Shown: piece by piece, positions 2,118 through 23,666 of the stretch
Numbering within the stretch: position 1 is the stretch's first letter
Layout of the letters: every line of letters begins with the position of its first letter
From: an uncultured Bacilli bacterium
GTDB taxonomy: Bacteria > Bacillota_I > Bacilli_A > RF39 > UBA660
Assembly: GCA_944372275.1 (NCBI GenBank)
Contig: CALVYO010000001.1
Coordinates: forward strand, 1-39,383
Length of the DNA stretch: 39,383 nucleotides
Reading direction: 5' to 3'
Made by a program: the position numbers and the translations under genes
The notes under the pieces: model-generated
What the model was told of the DNA's origin: nothing
Seen by the model: only the letters and a program-made list of their open reading frames with translations
The model's database searches: none

Positions 2118-2198
2118 ACTATATCAACCCTATCTTCGACTCTTTTCATACTATATATAATTTTACCATATTCGACATTTTTTTACAATACAAAAAAT

Positions 2199-2223
2199 CA
2201 AAAAAAAGAATGTTTATTCATTC
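2199..2223 (-). terminator. weak intrinsic terminator after the 534-aa gene
   Basis: Minus strand reads GAATG-aataaa-CATTC followed by TTTTTTTT. The stem is only 5 bp and the stop codon lies in the loop. Confidence 0.35.
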
Positions 2224-3971: not shown

Positions 3972-5018
3972 CTATTCATATCCTTGTGTATCTTTAATAA
4001 AATTCAATGAAATATATATTTCAGCACCATCAGAATCTGTTTCCAAACTATCGATATCTTGTCCTTCAATCCAAACATAAACACGAGTTTTGGTAATACC
4101 GTCTGGAACTGTAAACAATGGTACTTCAAAATCTTCATCAGTCATCGTTTCTTGTAGTTCAAAATAATTTGGATCAAGATTTGGTGAACCTGATACTGTA
4201 TTAGCAACAAATATTGGTCCACCAGCCCTAGTAAATGCATAAGTTGGAAATTCTTGGCCATTTACTAAATTAACGCCATACTTTGTTGCTCTTTCAATTG
4301 ATAAATCTGAATGATCTTTGCTATTTGGCTCAAAAATAATCGAATAACAATTATTATTACAAGATATATTCTGAACTTCAGTAGCAGAAGCATCTTTAGC
4401 AACAGACCCCATTTTAACAATTCCAACTCGTGAAGAATTTAATAAACCGACCATTTCTTCATCAGGATTTTCTTCAATTGTAATTGAAGTTCCATAATCA
4501 AAATACAAATTATCACTAGTTGGTGATCCTGAATCATTTTTAAAAAACAAATCAAATGCTATATAGTTATTGTACTCATTTCTTCCACCTTCATGCATTA
4601 AATTAGTCCGTACATAACCATTTTCTTTATCTTTATTAGGATACCTAACACCGCTACTTGCAAACATATTAAATATTGGACTATCGTGATTAGTTATTCC
4701 ATTTGAAGAAATAGGAACTAAACCTCCACCAGCCCATTGACTAGTATTATTAGGATAAGTATATCTTAATCCTCTAATAAGTTCATCAGCTGATATAACT
4801 ATATCAGTATCAAAATTAATGCCATCTAATGAGATTGATAATCCCGTATTCTTTTTAACTGTCATTGTAAATGTTTTTACTCTAACATTTAAATTGGTTG
4901 AAAACCACGCATATGTTGAAAAAATAAGCAAAATACCTATTATTACCATAATAGTAATCGTTACTTTTTTGTTAGTTTTTTCAATTATTCTTTTTTTTAA
5001 AGTATTTTGTTTTTTCAT
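3972..5018 (-). CDS. secreted TasA/camelysin-like fibre-subunit paralog, class D (D1, 348 aa)
   Basis: Basic N-terminus, TM helix, then FSTYAWFSTN. Shares GLSISLDG, GGLVPISS, YIAFDLFFKNDSG, FEPNS, PTYAF and ITKTRVYVWIEGQDID blocks with the B and C proteins. RBS is GGTGGTGA. Confidence 0.8.
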   Translation of the reverse strand: MKKQNTLKKRIIEKTNKKVTITIMVIIGILLIFSTYAWFSTNLNVRVKTFTMTVKKNTGLSISLDGINFDTDIVISADELIRGLRYTYPNNTSQWAGGGLVPISSNGITNHDSPIFNMFASSGVRYPNKDKENGYVRTNLMHEGGRNEYNNYIAFDLFFKNDSGSPTSDNLYFDYGTSITIEENPDEEMVGLLNSSRVGIVKMGSVAKDASATEVQNISCNNNCYSIIFEPNSKDHSDLSIERATKYGVNLVNGQEFPTYAFTRAGGPIFVANTVSGSPNLDPNYFELQETMTDEDFEVPLFTVPDGITKTRVYVWIEGQDIDSLETDSDGAEIYISLNFIKDTQGYE

Positions 5019-6402: not shown

Positions 6403-6428
6403 ATTTCCTCCTATATATAATTTTAGTA

Positions 6429-6459
6429 AACTAGAAGATTTTAATTAAATCTCCTAGTT
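6429..6459 (-). promoter_or_regulatory. intercistronic 12-bp hairpin between B1 and C1
   Basis: aactagaagatt (6429-6440) pairs with aatctcctagtt (6448-6459), giving one G-U on the minus-strand RNA. There is no U-tract on the coding (minus) strand. The B2-C2 junction has no equivalent. Confidence 0.45.
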
Positions 6460-6468
6460 ACTTATTTT

Positions 6469-7710
6469 TTATTCACCTGATGTTGGTCTCTTATCAACAT
6501 CTACTGGTAATTGTGGATCACCATCATATTCAATATCTTCACCATATAATTGTTCTTTAGTGAATCCGAATGAAACTGAGATTTGTCCTCCTAATGAAGC
6601 AAAATCATAGTTATCTACATCTTGACCTTCAATCCAAATATAAACTCTTACTTTTGTAATACTATTTGGTGCTAAATAGAATAATTCAGGTCTTTCAGTT
6701 CCTTTTAAATTTTTCATTGAATCTGTGAAAGTAGATACTTTCATTAATTTACCATCTTGTGCAGTAGTACTAACCGAAGTTGTCCAACTATTATATTCAG
6801 CGCCATCATATACATCTACTCCATCTGTATAATTAATTACACCACTTACTGCATATGTTGGAACGAATGTACCATCACTAACAGTACCACAAGTACCATT
6901 AAATGAAGCAGGATCTGTAATAGTTTGAGCAATTCTTTTTACACATGATGTAGTATACCAATTAATAGCATTTTGAACGTGTTTAGTATCGTTTGGTTCC
7001 CAAATTGTAGCATCACGATTAGCACAAATGGCAGATACACCATTACCACCAGTACAATCAATACCTTGAATTTTTGCAGTATTTTCTTCCGTAGCAATTA
7101 CACGACCAATTTGTGCGAAAGCAACTCTTACTGAATTTTCAATACCTGCAGTTTCTTCACCAGCAGCACCAGTTTTAACAGCTGATTGTGGAGTTAAATA
7201 AATTCCTTCTTCATTTAAAATATTAACTTCATCATAATATTCATTACCTGATAAGTTTTTAACAAATAAGTCAAATGCAACATAACCATCTTGTTCAGCA
7301 TCAGTATTTTCAACTTTACTTGCCATTACACGATAACCACCAGGTGAAGCAGTAAAGCTACCTTTTTCATATAAAATCAAATTTGATGAAGTAGTATCGA
7401 TTTTTCCAACTGATGACATTGGAATTAATCCATCACCACCCCAACTATTAGTATTTGTTAAATATGTTCCATCACCAGGAGTGTTATAATTATCTTCGTT
7501 AATTGTCACAGAATCACTGAAAGTCGTACCATCTAATGAAAGTGATAATCCATCGATAGCAGCAATTTTTACATCGAAAGCAGTAACATTAACAGTTTTC
7601 ATACCAATAAACCATGCATAGGTTGAAACTGATAAAATGATAGCACATAAACCAGTTCCAACAAGTAATCTTTTAACACGCTTTTCGTGTCTCTTATTTC
7701 TTTTTTCCAT
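6469..7710 (-). CDS. secreted TasA/camelysin-like fibre-subunit paralog, class B (B1, 413 aa)
   Basis: N-terminus MEKRNKRHEKRVKR, TM, then SVSTYAWFIGMKTVNV. C-terminus reads ITKVRVYIWIEGQDVDNYDFASLGGQISVSFGFTKE. Four conserved Cys. Confidence 0.85.
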   Translation of the reverse strand: MEKRNKRHEKRVKRLLVGTGLCAIILSVSTYAWFIGMKTVNVTAFDVKIAAIDGLSLSLDGTTFSDSVTINEDNYNTPGDGTYLTNTNSWGGDGLIPMSSVGKIDTTSSNLILYEKGSFTASPGGYRVMASKVENTDAEQDGYVAFDLFVKNLSGNEYYDEVNILNEEGIYLTPQSAVKTGAAGEETAGIENSVRVAFAQIGRVIATEENTAKIQGIDCTGGNGVSAICANRDATIWEPNDTKHVQNAINWYTTSCVKRIAQTITDPASFNGTCGTVSDGTFVPTYAVSGVINYTDGVDVYDGAEYNSWTTSVSTTAQDGKLMKVSTFTDSMKNLKGTERPELFYLAPNSITKVRVYIWIEGQDVDNYDFASLGGQISVSFGFTKEQLYGEDIEYDGDPQLPVDVDKRPTSGE

Positions 7711-7730: not shown

Positions 7731-8429
7731 TTAATAATTTTCAACATACTCTGAATTAAAGTCCATATAAACAGAAAATTCACCACCTAAGATATCGTCT
7801 GTACATTCAGGATCACTACCTTCAACCCAAATGACAATTGTGTATTTATCGATATCTCCTGGTTTAAAATTATCAACCTTATTACGGGCAACTAAACTTT
7901 CTTCTAAAAATGCAGTCGTATCTGGCTCATTGGCTCCATTTTTAGCAGCTTTAGCATAAGTAATTTGGTCTCCATTACGATAAACTCTAATTCTAACAGC
8001 ATCGTCGATTTCTTTGATAACATCTGTGATAAAAAGTTCTCTCCAATAGCTAGTAATCTCATTTCCAATATTCTCAACAAAAAATGTGTAAGCAAGGTAT
8101 TCTGTACCGTTATGTGACCCCCCGTCACTTTCATTTAAATCATTAGGTAACCAATTACCAGATATATTTGTAAATGTCTTAGGTGAAGCGATTGATAATT
8201 CTGCTCGATACACTTTATAGTCTGGATCATCGTAAATGACAATACCTCTACTAAAGTATAAGTTTTTATCAAGTGTTATACTAAAATTACCACTATTATA
8301 AATAATACCTATAACCACATACAAAAGAATAAATAGGAAAAGGATTACTAATAAAGCTATTCGAAAGATTTTTTTGAGTTTTTTTTCAGTTTTGATTTTC
8401 TTTGAATTAAGCTTAATCTTGTTTTCCAT
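7731..8429 (-). CDS. membrane-anchored TasA-like protein, class A (A1, 232 aa), first gene of cassette 1
   Basis: K-rich N-terminus and a long TM (IFRIALLVILFLFILLYVVIGIIY), but no (S/T)-(Y/L)-(A/S) motif. C-terminus YTIVIWVEGSDPECTDDILGGEFSVYMDF resembles the B/C/D C-terminal strand motif. RBS is GAAGGGG. Confidence 0.8.
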   Translation of the reverse strand: MENKIKLNSKKIKTEKKLKKIFRIALLVILFLFILLYVVIGIIYNSGNFSITLDKNLYFSRGIVIYDDPDYKVYRAELSIASPKTFTNISGNWLPNDLNESDGGSHNGTEYLAYTFFVENIGNEITSYWRELFITDVIKEIDDAVRIRVYRNGDQITYAKAAKNGANEPDTTAFLEESLVARNKVDNFKPGDIDKYTIVIWVEGSDPECTDDILGGEFSVYMDFNSEYVENY

Positions 8430-8496
8430 AACTCATACCCCTTCATATTTAACCTATTTGATTAGGCTTCTATGATATTCTTTACAATATAACTAT

Positions 8497-8547
8497 ATTA
8501 TAGCATACTAATTTTTTTTGTCAATATAATATGTCGATAATTGTCGA
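8497..8547 (-). promoter_or_regulatory. near-consensus sigma-A promoter of cassette 1 plus two upstream TGTCGA direct repeats
   Basis: Minus strand reads TTGACA (8519-8524), 16 nt, TATAAT (8497-8502). In plus-strand reading, TGTCGA occurs at 8532-8537 and 8542-8547. These are 10 bp apart and 13 bp from the -35. The geometry is identical upstream of A2. Confidence 0.6.
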
Positions 8548-8639
8548 AATTAATTTTACTAGCTTTTTTATTATTTGACAATATATTTTTACAATGATTG
8601 ACACTATTTTATATAAAAATGTAAATATTTTACAATAAT

Positions 8640-8733: not shown

Positions 8734-9345
8734 ATGAGAACAAAATTTAAAATTTTGATGGTAATTAGTTCTTTGGCTTTCACACTAAGTCTTATGAGTA
8801 ATACTTACTCAAGATATGTTGCTGATGTTGATGGCGATATTGAATTATTATTCGCAAAATGGCAAATACTTGTTAATGATAGTGATATCACTAATAACAC
8901 TACAACTTCTATTAATATAACTCCAGTTATGGAAGAAAATATTAATGTTGCTGATAATACCATTGCTCCTTCTTCTAAAGGTTATTTTGATATCGAAGTT
9001 GATCCATCTAATGTTGGTGTTTCTTTCAACTATAACATTACTTTAGATGTTGTTAATGAAAATCTACCTGATTTAATAATAAGTAAGTACGCTATATTAG
9101 ATAGTGATTATATCGAAGGTGATCAAATAACTACAACCACTATTTTAAATAATATTATAAATGGAACTGTTGATTATACTGATACCTTAGAACCATTTAA
9201 AATTAGAGTTTACTTTGAATGGTATGAAGGTGCTGATGAAGTTATGGATGATACAACTGATACTAACATTGGTTATGAAGCTACTTTAAATGATACTTCA
9301 TTATTAGTAAATGCAACAATAAGTTTCGAACAAAAAATTAATTAA
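8734..9345 (+). CDS. small secreted TasA/camelysin-like protein (203 aa)
   Basis: Signal peptide ends in MSNTYSRYVAD. Contains IAPSSKGYFDIEV, typical of the first strands of camelysin/TasA-type domains. C-terminus reads IRVYFEWYEGADEVMDDTTDTNIG...NATISFEQ. RBS is AAGAAGGG. Confidence 0.8.
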   Translation: MRTKFKILMVISSLAFTLSLMSNTYSRYVADVDGDIELLFAKWQILVNDSDITNNTTTSINITPVMEENINVADNTIAPSSKGYFDIEVDPSNVGVSFNYNITLDVVNENLPDLIISKYAILDSDYIEGDQITTTTILNNIINGTVDYTDTLEPFKIRVYFEWYEGADEVMDDTTDTNIGYEATLNDTSLLVNATISFEQKIN

Positions 9346-9389: not shown

Positions 9390-10226
9390 TTAACTATTCT
9401 TTTCATTAAAATATAAATTTTTAATTCTATCTAAAGCATCTTTAATATATTGACAACTAATCTTATATTGTTCAAAAACAATTTCAAATCCATTTTCATC
9501 ATCACATACAAAATTCCAATAATCTTTACCAATCAATAATTCTTCATCACAAAAAAATTGTTGTACTCTTTCTTGTTTCCAAATTTTATCTTCACCATAT
9601 TTATTGTATGCTGTAGCAAAAAATATATTTATTTTATCGTCTGATTCCAATAATTTATTTTTTAACAAAAAATATTCTTGTAATAATTCACTTTTTTCTG
9701 CCTTAGCCTTTTTATTATCTAAATCACCACCTGATTTTAATTCTATTACATAATGTTCCTTAGTTGAAGGGTTATAAAAATAATTATCTGTTTCGTGAGT
9801 TTTCATATAACTTTCTAAATTTTTAGGTTGGACACAATAAAAGTTGTTATAATCTTCTACACTAGGTTTAACATGTTTATCATATTCAGTAAGCAAATAA
9901 TCAATGTGTTGAGTCTGCTGAGGTAATAAATATGATTCTATTTTTCCCCTTACTTCATAAGATAAATTAGCAATAGAATTTCCTATATTTTCCAACACTT
10001 TACCAAAACTAGAATCAAATGATCTAACAAAGGCTGAATAAAACATAAATTCTTTACCTAATTCAGCAATAAAAACATTATTTTTTTTAGAATTAATAAC
10101 ACCGTCCGGATTATTAACCTCAGAAGCATATCTAAGTTCGAAGCCTTCAGCAAAATTTTTTATTCCTAAATCAACTATCTGTTTTATTGCAGTAATTTTA
10201 TGCTCTTTTAATAATTCTTCGGTCAT
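9390..10226 (-). CDS. candidate type II restriction endonuclease (278 aa)
   Basis: Starts 3 nt after the methyltransferase stop, with RBS AAGGAGG. Contains a PD-(D/E)xK-like arrangement (..THETDNYFY..EHYVIELKSGGD). Specificity unknown. Confidence 0.55.
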   Translation of the reverse strand: MTEELLKEHKITAIKQIVDLGIKNFAEGFELRYASEVNNPDGVINSKKNNVFIAELGKEFMFYSAFVRSFDSSFGKVLENIGNSIANLSYEVRGKIESYLLPQQTQHIDYLLTEYDKHVKPSVEDYNNFYCVQPKNLESYMKTHETDNYFYNPSTKEHYVIELKSGGDLDNKKAKAEKSELLQEYFLLKNKLLESDDKINIFFATAYNKYGEDKIWKQERVQQFFCDEELLIGKDYWNFVCDDENGFEIVFEQYKISCQYIKDALDRIKNLYFNEKNS

Positions 10227-10228
10227 TT

Positions 10229-11362
10229 CTAATCCTCCTTGTAGTTAGTAATTATTAAATGTTCAACATTTTTATTATTTCTATTTTGAAAACTTACCAA
10301 ATATTTTTTGTCAAATGATGATATATAAAATCCAGCATCTTTATATAAATTATAAATAAATTCTGTATTTTTAATTATTAACATAAATTTTGCTTTTGTT
10401 TTTTTTAAATAATTAAACAACCTTATTTGATCATTTTTATTAAAATCATTTTGTGCATAAGTTGAAAATTCAGTATCATAAGGTGGATCTAAAAACATAA
10501 AATCTTCTTTTGTTAAATTTATTTTATTACAAAATTCTTCAAAATCTAAATTGTATATTTCAGTTTTTTTCATATAATTTTTTATTTTTTCAGATGAAAT
10601 ATAATCTATTTTCTTTTTAAAATCTTTCTTATTATAACTTATGCCACCATAAGGAACATTAAATTTTCCTTGTTTATTATACCTAAACATTGATGCATAA
10701 CAATACTCTCTAATAAAATAAAAAATGGCTGATGAAAATTCTTTATCAATATCTAATTCATTTCTATAATTATACAAATATCTAAAGTGCATATAAAATG
10801 CACTTTTTAATGCTGATTCTAAATTATCTAATATATTTTTTTCAGTAAGTTTTCCTTTTTCTTTTTCAATTTTATTCATTCGACAAATTTTAGAATAAAA
10901 ATTTTTTTGGATTTCGTGAATAAAATTGTCAATTCTTATATTAAAACTTTCAGTTAATACACCATTAAATTCACTTGAATGTTGAATAACAAAATCACAA
11001 ATTTTATCATTATATTTAATTTTTTTTATTTTATCGATAGATGTTTCTTTACAAAATTTTTTATATAAGTTTAGTAATTCTTTTGCATTATTATCTATAA
11101 TTTTTTCAAGTAACATCCAATTATGATATAGTTCATTTAATTTATTAATAAATTTTTTATTATTATCTTTTATATATTTATATAAATTTATTAATTCGTC
11201 AGACTTATCATTTATAATTGAATTATTACAATTTAATGCAAAGTATACTGCCCCACCGCCAACAAAAGGTTCAACATATCTTGTAAAATTTTTCGGAATA
11301 TTTTCTAAAATAACAGATAATTCTTTTTCTTTGCCACCAGCCCATTTAATAAATGATTTCAT
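10229..11362 (-). CDS. Dam-class (alpha-group) N6-adenine DNA methyltransferase
   Basis: FIKWAGGKEKE and EPFVGGGAVYF (AdoMet motif I region) lie near the N-terminus, and FLDPPYD (motif IV) near the C-terminus. The start is trimmed to the ATG at 11362 (MKSFIKWAGGK) behind GAGGTG. The ORF-track start at 11404 has no RBS. Confidence 0.85.
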   Translation of the reverse strand: MKSFIKWAGGKEKELSVILENIPKNFTRYVEPFVGGGAVYFALNCNNSIINDKSDELINLYKYIKDNNKKFINKLNELYHNWMLLEKIIDNNAKELLNLYKKFCKETSIDKIKKIKYNDKICDFVIQHSSEFNGVLTESFNIRIDNFIHEIQKNFYSKICRMNKIEKEKGKLTEKNILDNLESALKSAFYMHFRYLYNYRNELDIDKEFSSAIFYFIREYCYASMFRYNKQGKFNVPYGGISYNKKDFKKKIDYISSEKIKNYMKKTEIYNLDFEEFCNKINLTKEDFMFLDPPYDTEFSTYAQNDFNKNDQIRLFNYLKKTKAKFMLIIKNTEFIYNLYKDAGFYISSFDKKYLVSFQNRNNKNVEHLIITNYKED

Positions 11363-11394
11363 TTTAAACACCTCATTTTTTGTGTTACATAAAT

Positions 11395-11423
11395 ATACTA
11401 TCATACAAACATATGTATGTCAA
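11395..11423 (-). promoter_or_regulatory. promoter of the R-M operon
   Basis: Minus strand reads TTGACA (11418-11423), 17 nt, TAGTAT (11395-11400). Confidence 0.5.
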
Positions 11424-11457: not shown

Positions 11458-11997
11458 TTATTCTTCAACATCAACTTCATCGCCATATTTAATTTCAACG
11501 ATTAATGCATATAATTCATATATAAATATTAAGAAACAAGGTACTAATACGATGAATAAAAATCCCCATTGTGATTCTATTATATTTAATACTGTTCCGA
11601 TATCATTATATACTTTAGTAGGACGACCAATTAAATATTTTAATGAATATGGATCACCATTTTCTAGAGTAATTACTTGATTATCAACATTAACTTCTCC
11701 TACTTTACCAATGTTGATGTCAGCTGTTTTAGACATTTGATCTACTTTATAAACAAACACTGTTTCGCCTACTTGCAAATTTTCTGGTGCCGCTTCTTCA
11801 ACTAATACTAAATCACCCTTTTGAAAATCCTCATGGCTTACTTTATCTTTTAAAATTACTAATGAAGTTTCACCAAATACGGTTACACGATAGTCATTAA
11901 AGTTTAATAATAAAACTGTCATAACTAAAGCGAAAGAAAAATAAATTACTCCAAATGTTACGATTAATACTTTTTTTATTGTTTTTAATGCTTTCAT
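11458..11997 (-). CDS. SipW-family paralog lacking the catalytic Ser and His boxes (pseudo-signal-peptidase, ~179 aa)
   Basis: Same architecture as SipW: N-terminal TM, beta-rich ectodomain, C-terminal TM (FLFIVLVPCFLIFIYELYALIV). Where SipW has SGSMEP this protein has VILKDKVSHED. Where SipW has THR(I/V) it has VFVYKV. The QKGDLVLV and ENGD blocks are retained. I prefer the start at 11997 (GGAGGT RBS); 12015 is the alternative. Confidence 0.65.
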   Translation of the reverse strand: MKALKTIKKVLIVTFGVIYFSFALVMTVLLLNFNDYRVTVFGETSLVILKDKVSHEDFQKGDLVLVEEAAPENLQVGETVFVYKVDQMSKTADINIGKVGEVNVDNQVITLENGDPYSLKYLIGRPTKVYNDIGTVLNIIESQWGFLFIVLVPCFLIFIYELYALIVEIKYGDEVDVEE

Positions 11998-12005
11998 AAT
12001 ACCTC

Positions 12006-12854
12006 CTAATTGCATTCTATTTCTAATAAAGAAAATTCATTTACATCATAAGTTGCTGATTTATCTACTTTATAAAATATGTAACTTAAATTATCTTTAC
12101 TAGGAATTTCTAAAATTATTTCATTAATATAACCATTTTGCATATTATAATTGGTTATATTATCTTTATCGATTCTTAATTTGTTAGCATCCCAATTAAT
12201 TTTTACACATTTTTTATCATCGGATGAATTTGTTATTGTTAGTCTATCATAATTATTAAAACTTTGATAAGTCATATCTGTTTTTTCAACTAATGTTTTA
12301 TCTTTTTTTAAAATAAATGTTCCGGTTAAAGTCTTTTCATATGGCTCAATACTTACTACTTCGATATCTGCAGTTACATTATCAGTTGCTATATCAAAAT
12401 AGATATCAGCAGTAGATTTTTGAATTACCCAATTATATCCCTTTGATTCGCAAGTTGCTTTATCAAAATCTGTCGTATCTACGCCATCATTTTTATTATT
12501 AATACAAGTATTATAACTTGATAATGTCCCATAATAAGTATTAGAATCAGTACCATTTATTTTGCAATCAGTACCATCTGATAATGTACAAGTAACTTTA
12601 TATTTTATGTCATAGTCTGTTATAGCTGCCTCATTTATTGAATTTGTTAAATTGAAATGAACGCTCGTTCCATCCCAAACATTATTGACATTTTTAACAT
12701 TATCACCTAGTTTATCACTACTTAAATAAAATCCTTGAGAATTTAAGTAGTAGTTCCATACTGAATTAGAAATGTACTTTGCTAAAGTTAAACCATTGGT
12801 TATTAATAATACTACAGTTAAAAGAACTACACCTATAATTAAATATTTTCGCAT
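12006..12854 (-). CDS. secreted protein with SipW-type signal (282 aa), Cys-rich
   Basis: Signal MRKYLIIGVVLLTVVLLITNGLTLAKYISN. Its ATG abuts the stop of the upstream gene (TAAATG) behind AGGTGA. Asn/Thr-rich mature part. Confidence 0.75.
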   Translation of the reverse strand: MRKYLIIGVVLLTVVLLITNGLTLAKYISNSVWNYYLNSQGFYLSSDKLGDNVKNVNNVWDGTSVHFNLTNSINEAAITDYDIKYKVTCTLSDGTDCKINGTDSNTYYGTLSSYNTCINNKNDGVDTTDFDKATCESKGYNWVIQKSTADIYFDIATDNVTADIEVVSIEPYEKTLTGTFILKKDKTLVEKTDMTYQSFNNYDRLTITNSSDDKKCVKINWDANKLRIDKDNITNYNMQNGYINEIILEIPSKDNLSYIFYKVDKSATYDVNEFSLLEIECN

Positions 12855-13391
12855 TTAATCACCTAACTTCTGCCAACTATTAATTTCTACATCGATAAAA
12901 TCAGCTAAATTTGTATATTCTAAAGAATTATATTCACTTGGAAATGTCAATTTTATTTTATAATTATCTAATATTTCTGTATTATGACTTAGTGTCTGAA
13001 CACTTGAATTACATACCAATTCATCAAATTCGTTTCGCGAATAAGTTTCATCACAATTCATTATTAATTCTTCTGATTCGCCTTCTTTATATAATTCAAT
13101 AGTTAAAGGCATAAAATGATATGTTTTTATAGTTATTTGATATTCAACTGTTACATTACTTAATTTTTCTTCTTTATTTGTAACAGAAAACATATATTCT
13201 TCGACACTTCCTGGATTTAAATTATTTAAGTTTAATTCTAAATGATCTAATTGTTTACTTTCGAAAACAAATTTAGCTATTTTTTGATCGACATTAATAT
13301 TACTATCGGAATAGAAGATAGAATATGTAACGCCAGTACCTAAAAATATTGCTATTAAAATGAATAGAATTATCAATACTTTATGTTTCAT
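12855..13391 (-). CDS. small secreted TasA/camelysin-like protein (178 aa)
   Basis: Signal ends in GTGVTYSIFYSD. LNPGSVEEYMFSVTN matches the l.PG....f.v.N strand typical of camelysin/TasA domains. Ends in EINSWQ. RBS is AGGAGGAG. Confidence 0.8.
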   Translation of the reverse strand: MKHKVLIILFILIAIFLGTGVTYSIFYSDSNINVDQKIAKFVFESKQLDHLELNLNNLNPGSVEEYMFSVTNKEEKLSNVTVEYQITIKTYHFMPLTIELYKEGESEELIMNCDETYSRNEFDELVCNSSVQTLSHNTEILDNYKIKLTFPSEYNSLEYTNLADFIDVEINSWQKLGD

Positions 13392-13400
13392 TTTCTCCTC

Positions 13401-16400
13401 CTATCTTACGATAAATTTCTTTTCTATTGTTCCTATTTTTGTAGTTCCATCATATAGTTCGAAAACAAATTTATAGCCACCTTGCATATTAATTAAATCT
13501 AATTGTTGTGGCAAAGTGTAATAATTATCAGTAATCTTATTTAATGATGTTGTTGTATAATTACCTAAATCAATCAATGTATAATCTTGATTATAAGCAG
13601 TTAATTGTTGTTTTTTATATAATGATACTCGAATATATGGATCAGTAAATGTTCCTGTTTTAGTTATATCAAAATTAACAATATCATCAGTAATTACATT
13701 ATTAAAATCTACATTAAAACCATAATCAGTAGTAATATTATTAGTAACAATTACTGGGATTGTAATTTCATTACTATATTCATTACCATACATTCCATCA
13801 TATGAGGATATAGCCTTAATTTTAATATAATATGTCCCGGATAATAACTTGCTATTATCAATTGATGTTGTTATTTCGATATTACCAATATCATTAATTC
13901 GAACTATACCATCATTATTTGGTGAATATTCTTTATTATTAACTTTAAAAGTTAGATTTTTTAAATATTCTTTAGCAACTATATTATCATTACTATCGAC
14001 TAATTTAATATTTAAACCAATTATCTTTTCAGCATAAGTTGTATCGATGATATCTTGACCATTAATCATTCCATAATTGATATTATGAGCAATATCGATT
14101 ATATTTGTTGAATCACTGTTATAAATTATTGAATTACTATAATTAGAACTAATCGTAATATTAGTTTCGCTATCGTATATATTAAATAATTTTTCAGTTT
14201 GTTTTAATGTTTTTATTATACCATCTTGATTATTTAACTCCATTGTAATATTTATATCTTCTAATGTTTCAACCGTATTAAATTCGATCATTAATGTGAA
14301 GTTTTCATTAATTTGACCAGTATAATTATTTTCATCAAATAAATTAGTTGAACCAACTTCACTAAATGAAGTTAATGGATAAGTTGTTATTAAAGTATCG
14401 ATGATATAAGTATAAACTTTATTTTTATTATTATCGATTAAAGTTAATTTAGTATTAAGTGGTAAAGCAATATTAGTTATAATACTATGTGTTTTTAAAT
14501 CATTATATTGATAATTAGAATTATAACTTAATTCTAATATCATTTTAGAATTGTTAGTTATATTATTGCTTGTAGTTATTTGATTAATTTGATAGCCTTC
14601 ATATATTATATATTCACTATTAACATAAGTTACATAATCGGCGTTATCGACTACTTTAGCATATAAAATATATGTTCCTTGATTATTTATTGTTACTTTA
14701 TCACTATAAGTATTCCAACTAACATTATTTAATTGTTCTTCAGTTAATACTTCTTGCGCTAAATGATATTCGATACTTTTTATACCAGATAAATTATCAG
14801 TAGCCGTTATCGTTATATCTTTACTTTCATTTATGTAATTTTTAATAATTGGTGTGGTTAAACTTTGCCAAGATTTATCATCCATACTAATAACCACATC
14901 TGAACCAGATAAATCTAAAATAATTAAATCTGTATTTAAATAATAAATATTATCGTTATTATCTACTACTTTAGCATATATAACATATTTTCCCTCATCT
15001 TTAATTTCGACGATATTTTCATAAGGGATCCAAGTTAAATTATTTATCTCAGCATTACTTAAAACTTTATCACTTATGTAATAACTTACTTCTTTAAAAG
15101 GTCTTAAAGCATCAACTTGTTCGATACTAAAAACCGTACTACTATTTAATTTAATTGTGTTTAATTCATAACCTAAATTATCCCAAGTATAAGATCCTAA
15201 ATGAATATTAGCGATTGGACTTGCAATATCATCAATAGCTAAAATCGGATAACTTCCTTCTTCATAAATCCAAATATTATCTTCATTATTAAGTAAATCA
15301 TCGTTATCGATAAATTCATTAAATTGTAAATTAGTTAAAACATAATCTTTAGTTTTTAAATTATTTATATCAGTTAAAATAGGACCAGTAACTAATCCTT
15401 CATTAACGATATTTCCTGAAGTATAATAAACATTTTCGATATTTAAGGTTTCATTTACATTATTAAATAAATATGTCGTATCAGTAGCAAAAGAATTTTT
15501 TAAATTAATTGTTCCATTTATATCATTTATTAAATAATCAGTAGTTCCAACACTATAACTTTTATCGATATTAGATGTACCATTTATACTTGTTACTAAG
15601 CCTGTTGTTGTATCTCCAGTAAGTGTTCCATTATTATAGGCTCTGTTAATATTGATATTATTTGTATAACCTAATAAACCACTACTTATTTTTCCATAAA
15701 TTGAACCTTTATTAATAACATTAGTAATAATCGTATCGTTTGCATTGGCAACAATACCACTAGTTATATTTGGATTATAAGTAACTTCATAAGTTAAATT
15801 AGAAATTAAAGTATTAGTATCAATAGTTATTTTATTTACTTTTCCTAAATCTAAACTAAATTCACCAGTAACTTCACTTTCATTAATTAAAATTGTATCT
15901 GTTATATTACCTTTAACAATTACATTAGTAATATTTCCTGCTATATAAGGAATAGCAATTTCGGTTAAACTACTTACTTCAGGAATGTCATAACTTTCTG
16001 TTTTAGTAGTTAATTCATTATTACTTACTACATAACCGTTATATAAAATATTAGTTAAAGATGCGTTAGTACTATCAGTAGCAATACCAGCAGTAACATT
16101 TCCACCATAAATCATCGCATTTTCAACATATAAATTACTTACATTACCACTTAAATTAGTAAACAAACCTACTTCTTCATTTTGATTAGTAATATATAAT
16201 CCATATATACGATATGAATTACCATTTAAATAACCTTTAAAATTATCTAAAGATTCAAATAGATTAATTGTTTTAATTTTAGTACCTGTATAATCTTTAT
16301 TATCATATACTTCATTAGTATATTCTTTTATGTAAAAAATCGTATTATTTATTTTATATTTAATTCCTTCTTCATCATAACTAAATATACCATCATTTAA

Positions 16401-16691
16401 AACAATATCATTATTTAATTCGAAATATGTATCTTGATAATCTTCAGTTTTAAGCATACTAGCAAAATAAGCAAGTTCATTACCATTTGAAATTATATAT
16501 GGATCAGTACTTGTTCCTGTTCCCTTTCGATAACTAGTAGCCACATTACCATCCCATACTTCAATTTCATTAATTGATGTTCTATTTTGATAGCGGGCCA
16601 AACTAGGTATCATAATTGATAAAATTAATATAAATACTAAAATCAAAATTAAATAATTTTGTTTAGGTATTTTATTTAATATACTCTTCAT
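13401..16691 (-). CDS. 1096-aa secreted beta-helix (GLUG-like) and Ig-like-repeat surface protein with SipW-type signal
   Basis: TM/signal ends in IPSLARYQNR. Then GTGTSTDPYIISNGNELAYFASML and VGLFTNLSGNVSNLYVEN-type repeats follow, suggesting a right-handed beta-helix or GLUG-type region. Two tandem ~90-aa repeats follow (..NNLTWIPYENIVEIKDEGKYVIYAKVVDNNDN.. and ..NNVSWNTYSDKVTINNQGTYILYAKVVDNADY..). No LPXTG or other wall-anchor motif. Confidence 0.8.
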   Translation of the reverse strand: MKSILNKIPKQNYLILILVFILILSIMIPSLARYQNRTSINEIEVWDGNVATSYRKGTGTSTDPYIISNGNELAYFASMLKTEDYQDTYFELNNDIVLNDGIFSYDEEGIKYKINNTIFYIKEYTNEVYDNKDYTGTKIKTINLFESLDNFKGYLNGNSYRIYGLYITNQNEEVGLFTNLSGNVSNLYVENAMIYGGNVTAGIATDSTNASLTNILYNGYVVSNNELTTKTESYDIPEVSSLTEIAIPYIAGNITNVIVKGNITDTILINESEVTGEFSLDLGKVNKITIDTNTLISNLTYEVTYNPNITSGIVANANDTIITNVINKGSIYGKISSGLLGYTNNININRAYNNGTLTGDTTTGLVTSINGTSNIDKSYSVGTTDYLINDINGTINLKNSFATDTTYLFNNVNETLNIENVYYTSGNIVNEGLVTGPILTDINNLKTKDYVLTNLQFNEFIDNDDLLNNEDNIWIYEEGSYPILAIDDIASPIANIHLGSYTWDNLGYELNTIKLNSSTVFSIEQVDALRPFKEVSYYISDKVLSNAEINNLTWIPYENIVEIKDEGKYVIYAKVVDNNDNIYYLNTDLIILDLSGSDVVISMDDKSWQSLTTPIIKNYINESKDITITATDNLSGIKSIEYHLAQEVLTEEQLNNVSWNTYSDKVTINNQGTYILYAKVVDNADYVTYVNSEYIIYEGYQINQITTSNNITNNSKMILELSYNSNYQYNDLKTHSIITNIALPLNTKLTLIDNNKNKVYTYIIDTLITTYPLTSFSEVGSTNLFDENNYTGQINENFTLMIEFNTVETLEDINITMELNNQDGIIKTLKQTEKLFNIYDSETNITISSNYSNSIIYNSDSTNIIDIAHNINYGMINGQDIIDTTYAEKIIGLNIKLVDSNDNIVAKEYLKNLTFKVNNKEYSPNNDGIVRINDIGNIEITTSIDNSKLLSGTYYIKIKAISSYDGMYGNEYSNEITIPVIVTNNITTDYGFNVDFNNVITDDIVNFDITKTGTFTDPYIRVSLYKKQQLTAYNQDYTLIDLGNYTTTSLNKITDNYYTLPQQLDLINMQGGYKFVFELYDGTTKIGTIEKKFIVR

Positions 16692-16789: not shown

Positions 16790-16819
16790 AAAAAAAAGAT
16801 TAGAGTTTGCTCTCTAATC
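16790..16819 (-). terminator. intrinsic terminator-like hairpin
   Basis: GATTAGAG (16798-16805) pairs with CTCTAATC (16812-16819). On the minus strand it is followed by T8 (plus-strand A-run 16790-16797). Confidence 0.5.
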
Positions 16820-16821
16820 CT

Positions 16822-16894
16822 CTTTTTAATTTGCCATTTATAGAGCTGGCTTCACTCACTTTTTTAATTGCCATTTAAGGCTGGCTTCACCTGC
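16822..16894. repeat. two tandem ~35-38 bp direct repeats plus a third truncated start
   Basis: TTTTTAATTTGCCATTTATAGAGCTGGCTTCAC(tcac) then TTTTTAAT-TGCCATTTA-AGGCTGGCTTCAC(ctgc). TTTTTTAATGC then restarts at 16895 and runs into the perfect palindrome AATGCTACT-T-AGTAGCATT (16901-16919). Confidence 0.6.
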
Positions 16895-17003
16895 TTTTTT
16901 AATGCTACTTAGTAGCATTATTATTATATGCTAAAAAGCATAATATAATCGCTTACGCAATAATAATATATCACAATAAAAATAAAATGTCTATATTTTA
17001 TCG

Positions 17004-17036: not shown

Positions 17037-18368
17037 TTATTCATTTGTTGTTGGAACATCTGGTCCATCATAATCTGGGAAGTCAGATTGATTATATCTT
17101 TCCTTAGTGAATCCAAAGTTAATTGTAATTTTCTGTCCTAATGATGCGAAATCATAGTTATCGATATCTTGTCCTTCAATCCAAATATATACTCTTAATT
17201 TAGTAATACTGTTTGGAGCTAAAGTCATAAATTGTGGACGATCTTTACCAGCAACATTTTTCATTGTATCAGTAAAGTATCCAGTTCTTGTTGTTGCATC
17301 ATAAGTCATATCGATTAATTTCATATCAGCTTTTCCGCCTACTCCAGCAGAAGCAGCATTATATTCTACTAATGTTTTAGTATTAGCAGCATATTTATTA
17401 TAAGCTAAACCATCATAAACATTTACGTTATCAGCAATAACAATTTCACGACTAATTGCATATGTTGGATATGCAGTAGTTGTATTTAATGTAGCACAAG
17501 ATGTACCTTCTGAATAAGAACCTGCAGCATTAACATCTGCGCCTGTTCTTTCTAAACAAGATTCTTTATACCAATTTAAAGCATTTTGAACGTGTTTAGT
17601 ATCATTTGGTTCCCAAATAGCAGCATTACGGCAAATACCTGTAACGTGTTGTGGATTATTAACATCATCTTCACTATCAGCACAAGTCATACTTGTAACT
17701 AAATCTTGAATATCTTCATCATCAGTATCTAAAGCTGCACTAACGCGTCCTAATTGTACAAATCCAACTCTTACTGAGTTTTCAATACCAGCATTACCTT
17801 CACCATCTAAGGCAACAGTAACTGCTGAATTAGTATTTAAGTAAATTGCTTCTTCGTTTAAAACATTATCTTCTGGATAATATGCTTCACCAGATAAGTT
17901 TTTAACGAATAAGTCGAATGCTATATAACCATTACCTTCTTCGTATTCGATACCACCAGCATTTTGTGTAACGTTATTGTCAACACGACTTGCTAATAAT
18001 CTATAACCACCTGTAACAGCAGTTAAACTTCCTTTTTCATATAATTTCATTCTTGAAGATGCTTCATCCATCTCACCAATTGAAGACATTGGAATTAATC
18101 CTTCATTTGTTCCATCTAACCATTGGTTAGCATGGTTTGTATAAGCTGGTGTATTTTTAGCATCTAGAGTGTAACGCCAATCAGCTCCATCCATTGATAA
18201 ATATAACCCTTCAGTAGTAGCAATATTAATATCAAATTCAGTAACATTAACAGTTTTCATACCTATAAACCAAGCATAGGTTGAAACTGATAATAAAATA
18301 GCACATAAAGCACAAATTGAAACTAGATTTTTAATTTTTTTACTTTTCTTTAATTTTCTATTTTTCAT
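17037..18368 (-). CDS. secreted TasA/camelysin-like fibre-subunit paralog, class C (C2, 443 aa)
   Basis: SVSTYAWFIGMKTVNV, then ITKLRVYIWIEGQDIDNYDFASLGQKITINFGFTKE. Collinear with C1 along its full length. RBS is AGGAGGT. Confidence 0.85.
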   Translation of the reverse strand: MKNRKLKKSKKIKNLVSICALCAILLSVSTYAWFIGMKTVNVTEFDINIATTEGLYLSMDGADWRYTLDAKNTPAYTNHANQWLDGTNEGLIPMSSIGEMDEASSRMKLYEKGSLTAVTGGYRLLASRVDNNVTQNAGGIEYEEGNGYIAFDLFVKNLSGEAYYPEDNVLNEEAIYLNTNSAVTVALDGEGNAGIENSVRVGFVQLGRVSAALDTDDEDIQDLVTSMTCADSEDDVNNPQHVTGICRNAAIWEPNDTKHVQNALNWYKESCLERTGADVNAAGSYSEGTSCATLNTTTAYPTYAISREIVIADNVNVYDGLAYNKYAANTKTLVEYNAASAGVGGKADMKLIDMTYDATTRTGYFTDTMKNVAGKDRPQFMTLAPNSITKLRVYIWIEGQDIDNYDFASLGQKITINFGFTKERYNQSDFPDYDGPDVPTTNE

Positions 18369-18378
18369 CTTTTACCTC

Positions 18379-19776
18379 CTAATTAATTGTCCATATATCA
18401 TCTACTCGCGTAGCTGTTTTTTTAACTCCACCATCTTCGAATGTAAATTTCGTCATCCAATTTGGTAAAGTAAATAATTTATTGTCATTATCATAAGTAA
18501 TTTTTGAATTTGAAATGTTGGTTATTTCACCCGTATTGATATAAGATACTGTTTGGTCTCTTACGACATCATCTGGTAATTCTGGATCACCATCATAATC
18601 AATATCTTCCCCATAGAATCTTTCTTTAGTAAAGCCGAATGATACAGATATTTTTCTGCCTAAAGATGCAAAATCATAATTATCAACATCTTGTCCTTCT
18701 AAGTAAATATAAATTCTTACTTTAGTAATACTATTAGGAGCAAGTGTTATAAATTCTGGTCTATCGACACCTTCATTCATTTTATCGGTATCAGTGAAGT
18801 AATCTACTTTATATAGTTTACCTGCTTTATATGTTGTCGATATCGATTTAGTATAACCATTATATTCTTTTCCATCATACACATCGACATTATCATCATA
18901 ATCGATAACACCACTTACTGCATATGTTGGATAGTAAACACCATCTTTAATGGTATTGCAAGTTCCTTTAAAAGAATTAGGATTGGTTATATCATCACCG
19001 ATTCTTTTACGACATGAAGTAGTATACCAACTAATAGCGTTGGTAACGTGTTTAGTATCGTTTGGTTCCCATATTGTAGCATCACGATCAGCACATATTC
19101 CTGTAACATTGCTATTAGATTTACAAGTAATGCCTGTAATTACACTAATATCATCTTCAACTGCAACTACTCGGCCAATTTGGGCGAATGCTACTCTTAC
19201 AGAATTTTCGATACCTGCTTTTATTTCTCCCCCATCTTCTGCGGCTTTTACCTCGGAAGCAGGATCCAAATAAATAGCTTCCTCATTTTTTTTGTTAAGT
19301 TCTGGATAATAAGCAATTCCAGATTTATTTTTAATAAATAAGTCGAATACTACATATCCATCAACTTCTTTAGCACCGGTGTTTTCTACTCTAGCAGCCA
19401 TTACACGATAACCACCAGGTGATGCTGTAAAACTTCCTTTTTCATACATAATAAGTCTTGATGAGCCAGTATCAATCTTACCAACTGATGAAACAGGAAC
19501 TAATCCTTTGCCACCCCAACTGTTAGTGTTTCCTTTATAACTTGCAGTTTTATAATTGTCTTCATTAATCGTTACGGTCGTTTCCCAATTTTCACCATCT
19601 AACGATAGTAATAAAGTATCAATCGCTGCAATATGAACATCAAAACTAGAAACATTAACAACCTTCATACCAATGAACCAAGCATAAGTAGAAACTATTA
19701 GGATTATCGTACATAAAACAGCAGCAACAAGTAATTTTTTTACTTTTGTTTCATGTTTCTTTTTTCTTCTTTTCAT
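18379..19776 (-). CDS. secreted TasA/camelysin-like fibre-subunit paralog, class B (B2, 465 aa), with extra C-terminal ~50 aa
   Basis: IVSTYAWFIGMKVVNV, then ITKVRIYIYLEGQDVDNYDFASLGRKISVSFGFTKE. A tail follows (..SYINTGEITNISNSKITYDNDNKLFTLPNWMTKFTFEDGGVKKTATRVDDIWTIN) that B1 lacks. Confidence 0.85.
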   Translation of the reverse strand: MKRRKKKHETKVKKLLVAAVLCTIILIVSTYAWFIGMKVVNVSSFDVHIAAIDTLLLSLDGENWETTVTINEDNYKTASYKGNTNSWGGKGLVPVSSVGKIDTGSSRLIMYEKGSFTASPGGYRVMAARVENTGAKEVDGYVVFDLFIKNKSGIAYYPELNKKNEEAIYLDPASEVKAAEDGGEIKAGIENSVRVAFAQIGRVVAVEDDISVITGITCKSNSNVTGICADRDATIWEPNDTKHVTNAISWYTTSCRKRIGDDITNPNSFKGTCNTIKDGVYYPTYAVSGVIDYDDNVDVYDGKEYNGYTKSISTTYKAGKLYKVDYFTDTDKMNEGVDRPEFITLAPNSITKVRIYIYLEGQDVDNYDFASLGRKISVSFGFTKERFYGEDIDYDGDPELPDDVVRDQTVSYINTGEITNISNSKITYDNDNKLFTLPNWMTKFTFEDGGVKKTATRVDDIWTIN

Positions 19777-19791
19777 AATCCCTTCTTTCCC

Positions 19792-20484
19792 TTATTCTGC
19801 TTCGATTGGTTTAAAATTCATACGAACTTTAAATTCTCCACCTAATATATTGTCGGTACAATCAGGATCTTCGCCTTCAATCCATAAAACGATTGTATAC
19901 TTATCCACAGCATTAGGTTCAAAAGAATCAACATCATTACTCATAATTACTTCATCAGTTAAGAAAGGAACTGTATTAGGTTCAGCATTTCCTTCACTTG
20001 ACAATTTAGCATAAGTTTGATATTCTCCGTTCTTATAAATTCTAACTCTGATGGCAGCATCAACATTTTTGATAACATCATCGATTAAAACTTCACTTGT
20101 ATAGCCAGCAACTTCATCTCCTGTATTTTCAATATAAAATGTATATATCAAATAACTATCGCCATTATGTGAACCACCTTCGTAATCTTCGATATCTTCA
20201 GGTAGCCAAATTTCCTTAATGCTATCGAATGTTTTAGGTGCTTTAGCGAGTAGTTCTGTTCGATATACTTTATATTGAAAATCATCATAGATAATTATGC
20301 CATTATTCAAATAAAGATTTTTATCGAGTGTTATGCTAAAATTACCACTATTATAAATAATACCTATTACAAAATATAAAATAAGTAAAAGTAGAAGTAA
20401 TAAGAGCACGGCAAGTTTGAATCTTTTTTTTAGTTTTTTCTCTTTTTTTAATTTATCGGTAGTTTTAGTAAATTTACTTTCCAT
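19792..20484 (-). CDS. membrane-anchored TasA-like protein, class A (A2, 230 aa), first gene of cassette 2
   Basis: Collinear with A1: ..VIGIIYNSGNFSITLDKNLY.., GGSHNG, AIRVRIYKNG, KYTIVLWIEGEDPDCTDNILGGEFKVRMNF. Confidence 0.8.
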   Translation of the reverse strand: MESKFTKTTDKLKKEKKLKKRFKLAVLLLLLLLLILYFVIGIIYNSGNFSITLDKNLYLNNGIIIYDDFQYKVYRTELLAKAPKTFDSIKEIWLPEDIEDYEGGSHNGDSYLIYTFYIENTGDEVAGYTSEVLIDDVIKNVDAAIRVRIYKNGEYQTYAKLSSEGNAEPNTVPFLTDEVIMSNDVDSFEPNAVDKYTIVLWIEGEDPDCTDNILGGEFKVRMNFKPIEAE

Positions 20485-20536
20485 CTTTTACTTACACCCC
20501 TTTTGTATACTCTGATATCCTTTACAATACAATATA

Positions 20537-20587
20537 ATTATAGCATACCACCATTTTTTGTCAATATTAATTGTCGACTATTGTCGA
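20537..20587 (-). promoter_or_regulatory. near-consensus sigma-A promoter of cassette 2 plus two upstream TGTCGA direct repeats
   Basis: Minus strand reads TTGACA (20559-20564), 16 nt, TATAAT (20537-20542). TGTCGA occurs at 20572-20577 and 20582-20587, the same 13/10-bp spacing as upstream of A1. Confidence 0.6.
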
Positions 20588-20649
20588 AAAATGTGATTTT
20601 TTTGTGAAAATGTACTGTCAATTTTGATATAATAAATATGGTGATAGTA

Positions 20650-22735: not shown

Positions 22736-22832
22736 AATATTTTCAATTTTATTACATATAATAAATATATAATAATGCATTAGTAAAAGTCATTAACTTG
22801 ACATTTATTAAAAACTATAGTATTATTATATC

Positions 22833-22944
22833 ACCGGAGAGGAATTCTCGTCAGGTCGATAGTTAGGATACGATTTTTTTAATTAAGCGTGCTGTTATTG
22901 TACGTCGCCCTAACTGGGAAAAAGTCACATTTGTGACTTTTTTT
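22833..22944 (+). ncRNA. candidate ~110-nt small RNA of unknown class
   Basis: Consensus promoter TTGACA (22798-22803), 17 nt, TATTAT (22821-22826). Intrinsic terminator AGTCAC-attt-GTGACT plus T6 (22919-22944). No start codon or ORF. Internal pairing AGTTAGG (22861-22867) with CCTAACT (22909-22915). Confidence 0.4.
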
Positions 22945-22949
22945 CTTTA

Positions 22950-23666
22950 TTATGGAAGAATTATTTTAAAATCAACGACCTTTGATAATGATAAATCATT
23001 ATCAATAACCATTCTTCTAATTGTTCCTGCTAACAAATCTGCTGCTTGAACAACATAACTTTTACCAGAATCTTGATAAGTCACTTTAACTTCTAAATCG
23101 GAAAAAACAATAGGATTTATTTTACCAGAATAGTTATAATTACATATTCCATATTTTAATTCCTCAATTAATCCATCACGTAAATTGTAATAACCGTTAC
23201 TTTTCGTACTTTGTTGATCGATATTAACAATTAAACGAATCGGTTTTGTCGCATTAATATTACCGTTTTTTATTAAATCCTTAATTATTTCTTTTATCAT
23301 TCTTCTAATTGAATAATCTAAAAACCTTCCTTTTGCTGCCTTACTTTCTTTAATGTGTTCATATACATCATCATTTTTTATTATTAACGCAACTACATAA
23401 TATTTTTTTATATAGTTCATTATTCTCCTTTTATCTGTTTTTTTTATATTAGTATTCTTAATTTCAGGACAATTATTTTGACATAAATCTTTAAAATTAC
23501 AATAACTACACTTTATGTCATTAATAATGCTTCTATATTGTGTAATAAATTTATCTTTTTCTTTTTTAGACAAGAAAACTAATCCTCCATAAACGCTTAT
23601 ATGTTCCTTTGAAGTTAGTTTTCCTGAATCATCTAAATTAATATATATTTCCTGTATTTCATTCAT
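22950..23666 (-). CDS. DUF3800 family protein
   Basis: N-terminal IYINLDDSGK and C-terminal VVQAADLLAGTIRR are the DUF3800 signature ends. Confidence 0.7.
   Translation of the reverse strand: MNEIQEIYINLDDSGKLTSKEHISVYGGLVFLSKKEKDKFITQYRSIINDIKCSYCNFKDLCQNNCPEIKNTNIKKTDKRRIMNYIKKYYVVALIIKNDDVYEHIKESKAAKGRFLDYSIRRMIKEIIKDLIKNGNINATKPIRLIVNIDQQSTKSNGYYNLRDGLIEELKYGICNYNYSGKINPIVFSDLEVKVTYQDSGKSYVVQAADLLAGTIRRMVIDNDLSLSKVVDFKIILP

Follow-up and report, generated by a model that had tools for sequence, protein, structure and literature searches.

The DNA analysed here, referred to throughout as the window, is a stretch of 39,383 nucleotides (GC ~24%) from contig CALVYO010000001.1 of an uncultured Bacilli bacterium, which is represented by a gut metagenome-assembled genome (MAG) of 1.23 Mb and 73% completeness. 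The window contains two copies of a three-gene cassette, A-B-C, encoding putative components of a surface structure, with all genes of both copies on the minus strand and each open reading frame (ORF) at the position given by an earlier first-pass annotation (Table 1). The two cassettes form direct repeats 12 kb apart and are not adjacent, so that the tandem placement described in that annotation was not borne out. The source genome holds exactly two A genes and five genes of the B/C/D type, all within the window.

Table 1. Positions of the cassette genes, control regions and accessory genes within the window
Feature	Position	Strand	Description
Cassette 2 promoter and leader	20513-20589	-	TTCGACA 20582-20588; TCGACA 20572-20577; -35 TTGACA 20559-20564; 16-nt spacer; -10 TATAAT 20537-20542; leader ATTGTATTGTAAAGGATATCA 20513-20533
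A2	19792-20484	-	230 aa; uncleaved N-terminal membrane helix, then beta-sandwich ectodomain (predicted); putative membrane-anchored base or initiator
B2	18379-19776	-	465 aa; putative major subunit; SipW-type signal STYAWF; extra C-terminal module of ~55 aa
C2	17037-18368	-	443 aa; putative major subunit; SipW-type signal; mosaic with C1
Intrinsic terminator after C2	17009-17033	-	11-bp stem, then T7 run; conserved in L001 and L002
G1096, H178, I282, J185	11458-16691	-	Behind cassette 2; own TG-extended -10 TGTTATAAT, preceded by TGTCGA; located after F534 in relatives with one operon
Cassette 1 promoter and leader	8473-8549	-	TTCGACA 8542-8548; TCGACA 8532-8537; -35 TTGACA 8519-8524; -10 TATAAT 8497-8502; leader TATATTGTAAAGAATATCA; consensus match 12/12 with TG
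A1	7731-8429	-	232 aa; paralog of A2
B1	6469-7710	-	413 aa; paralog of B2; C-terminal module lost
B1-C1 intercistronic hairpin	6425-6462	-	-15.9 kcal/mol
C1	5080-6402	-	440 aa; paralog of C2
Hairpin after C1	5042-5068	-	GAAGAGTAAT...ATTACTCTTC; putative attenuator or 3' stabiliser
D1	3972-5018	-	348 aa; distant B/C paralog (34%); 92% between species; putative minor subunit
47-aa ORF (E), F534 and 680-aa SipW-type signal peptidase fusion	75-3954	-	Accessory genes kept with cassette 1 (synteny)

Global amino acid alignment gave identities of 55.7% over 230 aa for A1 and A2, 68.5% over 410 aa for B1 and B2, and 69.5% over 433 aa for C1 and C2, with the cassette copies differing by 23-35% in DNA. 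The similarity of each pair spans its full length (sliding windows, repeat families) and is not confined to the signal peptide and C-terminal motif, which establishes the cassettes as true duplicates. The long run SSRMKLYEKGSLTAVTGGYRLLAS is present in both C1 and C2. In the same alignments B and C are 54-58% identical to one another and D is ~34% identical to either; B and C are older paralogs and D is a distant one. Paralogy of B and C had been recognized previously and stands, whereas their ends, described as nearly identical, are 75-82% identical. The global identity of A to B, C and D is close to chance level, and the sole overlap detectable between their profiles is a 45-residue C-terminal motif, ..TK.R.YIWIEGxD...D...LG......F (hhalign 65%).

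Duplication of the cassette includes its promoter and 5' untranslated region, as had been claimed: positions 8470-8549 and 20510-20589 are 80% identical over 80 nt, compared to 65% for the adjoining A coding DNA. Both cassettes share the layout TTCGACA-N3-(A/G)TCGACA-N7-TTGACA-16 nt-TATAAT, followed by the leader (T)ATTGTAAAG(G/A)ATATCA. The spacer is 16 nt in every ortholog and contains runs of A6-A8. TTCGACA occurs seven times in the window against an expectation of 2.3. In 42 of 68 relatives TCGACA occurs in the 170 nt preceding A (2.5% of random windows), and in 44 of 68 the leader motif precedes A (background 1.9%). The double-box composite (TCGACA-TCGACA-TTGACA) is specific to the window clade, which consists of the window together with L001-L005 and L051 (FtsK identity 96-98%), and is carried by both cassettes.

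The 0A box of Bacillus subtilis is TGTCGAA, the complement of which is TTCGACA. Boxes of this type lie directly upstream of the -35 element in both cassettes, and the source genome encodes a Spo0A ortholog of 252 aa (L084:1471-2229, minus strand, contig C33) with a receiver domain, a Spo0A_C domain (E 9.7e-41) and the conserved recognition helix SRVERSIRHAVEV. Both cassettes are probably switched on jointly by Spo0A. In a gut MAG of ~1.2 Mb, both sporulation and control restricted to the surface or matrix are conceivable roles for Spo0A.

Operon layout and the regions behind the C genes

The gene order around the cassettes was compared with that of 75 related loci, the ORFs of which were classified by similarity to the window proteins. 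The dominant layout in these relatives is a single operon, A-B-C-D-(E47)-F534-G1096-H178-I282-J185-SipW680, with K203 placed divergently upstream, and the layout ABCDFG(HIJ-SipW) is present in at least 32 loci. Only the window clade shows the split layout A2-B2-C2, G-H-I-J, K203(-), A1-B1-C1-D1-E-F-SipW680, in which the accessory genes are each single-copy and divided between the two cassettes. The ancestral single operon was split in the window lineage, with cassette 2 now heading G-H-I-J and cassette 1 heading D-E-F and the SipW fusion. Cassette 2 had been described as ending at a strong terminator; the terminator is present, although G-H-I-J of the same system follow it. This arrangement of terminator and TG-extended -10 of G is kept in L001 and L002. 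The cassettes are read here as diverged copies of the 5' major-subunit module (promoter-A-B-C) of a conserved cluster of ~11 genes that occurs in uncultured Bacilli of the gut with small genomes. Taken together with the surface structure and the joint activation proposed for it below, this reading is assigned a probability of about 0.55.

The regions behind the major-subunit genes differ between the two copies. Intercistronic hairpins are present between B1 and C1 and between C1 and D1, in agreement with the first-pass annotation, while the corresponding spacers of cassette 2 are just 15 and 10 nt long. The hairpin after C1 belongs to a family-wide stem-loop, AAGAGTAAT-loop-ATTACTCTT, located behind the last major-subunit gene, and a canonical terminator takes its place in cassette 2. 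Its core, GAGTAA...TTACTC, was found in 39 of the 55 intergenic regions that precede D in relatives (C-D, or B-D in a few distant loci). Conservation of the stem-loop AAAGAGTAAT-loop-ATTACTCTTTATTT in the C-D regions of L001-L071 (for example L011:8262-8337) extends to the sequence and not to the structure alone, which hints at a protein-binding or processing site over a plain terminator.

The additional C-terminal tail of B2 noted earlier is also real, with 80 aa following FGFTKE compared to 27 in B1. It corresponds to a C-terminal module of ~55 aa that is optional in the family and recurs among numerous B/C homologs, with a match in 40 of 70 long tails. Because the nearest relative of B1 carries the module, it is taken as ancestral and as lost by B1. 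Longer family members carry immunoglobulin-like (Ig-like), InlB-B-repeat, DUF6273 or Gly-rich modules in the same place, which argues for a surface-exposed C-terminus.

Several other features of the locus were recorded. An insert of ~206-220 nt between the C2 terminator and the G1096 promoter (16790-16995) carries a number of hairpins and a motif in duplicate, GTGAAGCCAGC..AAATGGCAA; L001 and L002 lack the insert and have a spacer of 125 nt, and no Rfam match was obtained for it. A repeated mobile element was considered for this insert and rejected, as it is single-copy in the source genome. Within the group behind cassette 2, G1096 (13401-16691) is the fastest-evolving gene of the locus, with 68% amino acid identity to its orthologs and a ratio of nonsynonymous to synonymous substitution rates (dN/dS) of 0.29, where FtsK is 98% identical. 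Between J185 and K203 lies a type II restriction-modification pair (9390-11404), a TdeIII-like endonuclease and a D12 N6-adenine methyltransferase, that is present in the window and L005 and absent from L001-L004 and L051. K203 (8734-9345, plus strand), divergent from cassette 1, resembles a small TasA-like secreted protein with the junction MSNTYSRYVAD and the end ..ATISFEQ, and is kept divergently upstream of A in many relatives. K203, next to A1, and the SNase gene, which occupies the matching divergent position next to A2, are unrelated, and the possibility that they are paralogs marking a larger duplication was rejected. Elsewhere in the window, a DUF3800-I RNA was identified by Rfam at 22826-22952 on the plus strand (57.5 bits), adjoining a DUF3800 gene at 22950-23666.

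Selection, recurrence and gene conversion

Comparison of the window with L002, L004 and L051 gave dN/dS values of 0.07-0.29 for every gene. Amino acid identity to the same orthologs is 98% for FtsK and LexA, 91% for B2, 85% for B1, 84% for C1, 81% for C2 and 68% for G. Both cassettes are intact, are maintained by purifying selection and are conserved across five or more related species. In both B and C, conservation covers the signal and the N-terminal and C-terminal cores, and two central regions vary; the ratio of nonsynonymous to synonymous differences per site (pN/pS) in the variable regions is 0.9-1.0 between paralogs and ~0.5 between orthologs, compared to 0.1-0.25 in the core. The N-terminal strand and C-terminal strands, being the most conserved, are candidate polymerisation interfaces.

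The duplication is older than the split of the window-clade species; for its dating, dS values are unreliable, since synonymous sites are near saturation in this genome of 24% GC (third-position GC, or GC3, ~0.11-0.17). In a quick tree of 178 sequences, C1 and C2 were recovered as sisters (SH-aLRT 94), as were B1 and B2 (93), and in an approximately unbiased (AU) test monophyly of A1 and A2 was not rejected (p = 0.31). When one genome per genus was surveyed across the GTDB family, a homolog of A was found in 30 of 121 genera, in one copy each, with two in the source genome. Homologs of A, B, C and D were not detected in a genome of the same genus (G208, 95% complete), the contig of which stops right after ftsK. 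Given this patchy distribution, horizontal acquisition of one cassette is possible.

Additional copies of the module are found elsewhere in the family. In L018, which has the layout B-C-D-F, A-B-C, G, the duplicated genes group with each other as sisters. L008 and L011-L014 have A-(B-C)x2-3-D (ABCBC, ABCBCBC), and two cassettes occur in at least two MAGs of the clade L006, L021, L043 and L073 versus L016, L026, L027 and L074. Duplication of the module has thus recurred independently, in at least three or four lineages. The extra copies are nearly always B-C units, which suggests that B and C function as a pair. In L006, L021 and L043 a protein of ~200 aa comes after the second A-B-C cassette, and then one or two larger ones (~1,200 aa) that are not BLAST-similar to G1096. 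Extra cassettes may bring their own large partner proteins.

Exchange between the window cassettes was assessed in quartets consisting of copies 1 and 2 of the window and of L002, in which informative sites were scored as orthologous, concerted or exchanged. The counts were 106/34/16 for C, 180/13/10 for B and 136/1/5 for A. A derived insertion of eight residues (..DMTYDxxxxxGYFTD) is shared by C1 and C2 of the window, occurs elsewhere just in C1 of L051, and is absent from all outgroups among the aligned sequences. Residues ~133-150 are reciprocally swapped, such that window C1 carries the C2 type of the other species ('QVG.S..EYVEG') and window C2 carries their C1 type ('NAGG.EYEEG'). The C genes, alone among A, B and C, exchange short segments by gene conversion, and the high similarity of C1 and C2 is for this reason partly secondary. 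This point had escaped the first-pass annotation, as had the division of one ancestral operon between the cassettes, the family-wide nature of the C1-D1 hairpin and the loss behind the difference in the B tails.

A putative SipW-dependent surface structure

B, C and D possess a Lys-rich N-terminus, a hydrophobic segment and a STYAWF junction, conforming to the SipW-cognate pattern (G/S/T)T(Y/F/W)A(W/Y/F/L)F followed by a strand; A1 and A2 lack the junction. Proteins of the TasA/camelysin family (PF12389) from the same class have comparable junctions (GTTYAWFSE, TVYAWFSE and GGTYALFSD), and alignment of B/C/D with these proteins by hhalign reached 93.5% probability over residues 7-47 only, that is the signal and first strand. 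These are the only parts that B, C and D share with TasA/camelysin proteins, and membership of the TasA family is not established further. The 680-aa protein (75-2117) has a Peptidase_S24-like match at residues 52-129 and lies 3' of the cluster in relatives. The C-terminal 60 residues of all seven proteins (A1, A2, B1, B2, C1, C2 and D1) are free of LPXTG-like motifs, and no sortase domain was found among the window genes scanned. The same seven proteins gave nothing usable in Pfam or NCBIfam. The family is large: more than 2,000 matches were obtained in 90% clusters, and at 50% identity it has 2,337 representatives. A scan of the whole source genome for PF12389 (E up to 1) gave no match, and among the strong matches listed by a profile search there was no bridge from the family to PF12389.

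An AlphaFold2 model of C2, built from an alignment of 131 sequences, was confident and beta-rich, with a predicted local distance difference test (pLDDT) score of 92.1 and a predicted template modelling score (pTM) of 0.89. Weak matches of this model to viral jelly-roll capsids were dismissed as noise, none being significant. The A2 model (pLDDT 85.6) consists of a long membrane helix (2-45) followed by the strands of a beta-sandwich.

The cluster most likely builds a SipW-processed, sortase-independent surface fibre or coat. One close parallel in organization is the sipW-tasA...calY locus of Bacillus cereus, which with CapP produces TasA/CalY heterofilaments (PMC13082335). Both systems are sortase-independent and combine a dedicated SipW-type peptidase, a junction of the type (S/G)T(Y/F/W)A(W/F/Y)F, two paralogous structural subunits, which co-assemble in B. 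cereus, and a separate accessory protein, which controls assembly there. In contrast, the subunits described here are ~440 aa long compared to ~200, have no PF12389 match and, in the case of the C2 model, no PDB match; the cluster has extra genes (A, D, F534, G1096, H, I and the SipW-EAL-like fusion), and the subunit pair and anchor are duplicated along with the promoter. The tapA-sipW-tasA operon of B. subtilis, which forms TasA fibres by donor-strand exchange with strand complementation by TapA (PMC9674648, PMC10151520), similarly joins a SipW peptidase to secreted beta-rich proteins, with a conserved N-terminal strand as candidate donor strand, a partner for anchoring or initiation (TapA in B. 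subtilis, A in the window) and Spo0A upstream of matrix-gene control. However, control by Spo0A is indirect in B. subtilis (SinI/SinR, AbrB), whereas 0A-like boxes abut the -35 element here, and TapA is secreted, whereas A is predicted to be a permanent membrane protein. No similarity in fold between the two systems was demonstrated.

The sipW-bsaA-bsaB-bsaC operon of Clostridium perfringens, with membrane-anchored BsaA oligomers (PMC7395162, PMC11580942), also unites SipW with paralogous TasA-like subunits, lacks LPXTG motifs, and differs in size and fold; BsaA is locked by an Asn-Lys isopeptide bond, and B and C show invariant K, N, D and E residues. The archaeal bundling pili AbpA/AbpB (PDB 7UEG, PMC9245690), of which AbpA is related to TasA, resemble the system in that their operon encodes membrane-anchored beta-rich partners and in a weak match of the A2 model to 7UEG, although this is one of many generic beta-sandwich matches and the C2 model does not match 7UEG. 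Lastly, the trading of short tracts between C1 and C2 inside variable regions is reminiscent of surface variation by gene conversion in multi-copy pilin and adhesin families, but here both copies have promoters, the events are seen on evolutionary time only, and there is no archive of silent cassettes. Overall, the system appears to follow the sipW-tasA logic and to represent a variation on SipW-dependent fibres within a large unannotated family.

Under this scheme, A would remain uncleaved in the membrane as the base, while B and C would be exported via the SipW-type signal and cut between STYA and WF. Polymerisation of the two would then proceed via their conserved parts, the N-terminal strand and the C-terminal core, in the manner of TasA, CalY and BsaA. 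B and C would probably alternate or pair, like TasA and CalY in B. cereus, with D, G, H and I as minor or tip components. The hairpin or terminator behind C would keep the output of major subunits above that of minor ones, and Spo0A would activate both cassettes together. Their products would share the same assembly interfaces and differ in variable, presumably exposed, loops, with B2 adding a display module. The outcome would be two fibre variants with different partners (D versus G, H and I), or mixed fibres.

Alternative explanations and significance

Several observations weigh against the proposed reading. The fibre is a prediction from genes and modelled structures. B, C and D match neither PF12389 nor any other Pfam or NCBIfam model (hmmscan of the seven proteins, PF12389 E up to 0.1), and sequence and profile searches of the PDB were without match. 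Foldseek searches of PDB and BFVD with the C2 model gave nothing significant (none with E <0.1), so that a TasA-like jelly-roll fold is not demonstrated; the model presents the signal segment as a continuous helix (2-36), making a signal anchor possible. Foldseek matches of A2 are weak, generic beta-sandwiches, among which AbpA (7UEG) ranks sixth (E 1.4e-3, TM-score <0.3). With regard to the duplication itself, B1 and B2 fall into a polytomy in careful trees, which also fail to unite A1 with A2, leaving duplication in situ unproven, and the sisterhood of C1 and C2 may be a by-product of gene conversion. Finally, given the C2 terminator, cassette 2 may drive G-J solely via the separate promoter of G.

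Some of these points would suit a different architecture, in which A, B, C and D form not a fibre but a membrane-anchored or wall-associated coat, such as an S-layer or surface lattice, that the duplication doubled or diversified. The subunits are twice the size of TasA and have no fold or profile match to it past the signal region, the continuous helix of the model fits an anchored protein, and the very strong promoter together with enriched GC at first and second codon positions (GC1/GC2) is as expected of an abundant structural protein. Such a coat is nevertheless unlikely. The cluster encodes a SipW-type peptidase of its own, the junction cognate to SipW is found in B, C and D, conservation peaks in the first mature strand and the last strands, a pattern anticipated for a polymerisation interface, and a separate anchored A with a large G fits a base-and-tip layout. 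A foreign origin of one cassette, gained from another genus of the family through horizontal transfer or recombination, was judged of similarly low probability. The A1-A2 distance equals that to the A of other genera, the careful trees described above leave the A and B pairs unjoined, and the system is patchy and was not found in the same-genus genome. Conversely, the AU test leaves monophyly of A1 and A2 unrejected, the quick tree joins both the B and the C pairs, the double TCGACA-TCGACA-TTGACA promoter unique to the clade is present in both cassettes, and GC at each codon position is equal in the two. Although the contig derives from an incomplete MAG, a decaying redundant duplicate or an artefact of assembly or binning is scarcely credible: a DNA difference of 23-35% rules out collapsed or duplicated assembly, the same layout occurs in independent MAGs of different studies (L001-L004, L051), and all ORFs are intact with dN/dS of 0.1-0.25.

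Antigenic or functional alternation had been suggested for the two copies, whereby one cassette at a time is expressed and switching alters the surface. The pN/pS of ~0.9-1.0 between paralogs in the variable regions of C, the trading of segments between C1 and C2, the evolution of B, C and G at 5-15 times the rate of housekeeping genes and the A6-A8 runs in the promoter spacers are consistent with this. However, the near-consensus promoters, boxes and leaders are nearly identical, the spacer is 16 nt in all orthologs, and both cassettes are complete; no inverted repeats flank either promoter, no recombinase was found among the window genes scanned, and no silent or promoterless copy was found. 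In addition, the accessory genes are divided, and silencing one cassette would either remove D-E-F-SipW or sit upstream of G-J. Alternation is accordingly considered improbable. Co-regulation is more likely, given that in five or more related species the two copies are intact and purifying selection acts on each, that both carry the same Spo0A-box-like repeats, and that the genome encodes Spo0A. The other suggestion, two fibre types or functional diversification, is plausible; divergence is concentrated in the two variable regions of B and C, with the N-terminal strand and C-terminal core conserved.

Returning to the reading of the cassettes as diverged copies of one major-subunit module, a wider and more tentative proposal can be made. 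B, C and D may constitute a new structural class of SipW-processed, self-polymerising fibre subunits (more than 2,300 clusters at 50% identity) restricted to uncultured Bacilli of gut and rumen with small genomes, directly activated by Spo0A, in which the module has been repeatedly duplicated and the exposed loops diversified by gene conversion between expressed copies. If true, this would represent a host-facing variation system in a lineage without a cultured member. Both human and animal guts commonly harbour small-genome Bacilli of this kind, which are uncultured and whose surface biology is essentially undescribed. Among conserved loci without annotation, the cluster is one of the largest that they carry, and its principal proteins have neither a Pfam family nor a solved relative. 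The locus also illustrates the splitting of one operon into two transcription units via a duplicated promoter-proximal module, and its recurrent duplication, functional patch-trading copies and Spo0A-type boxes provide handles for choosing the proteins, promoter and loops to study.

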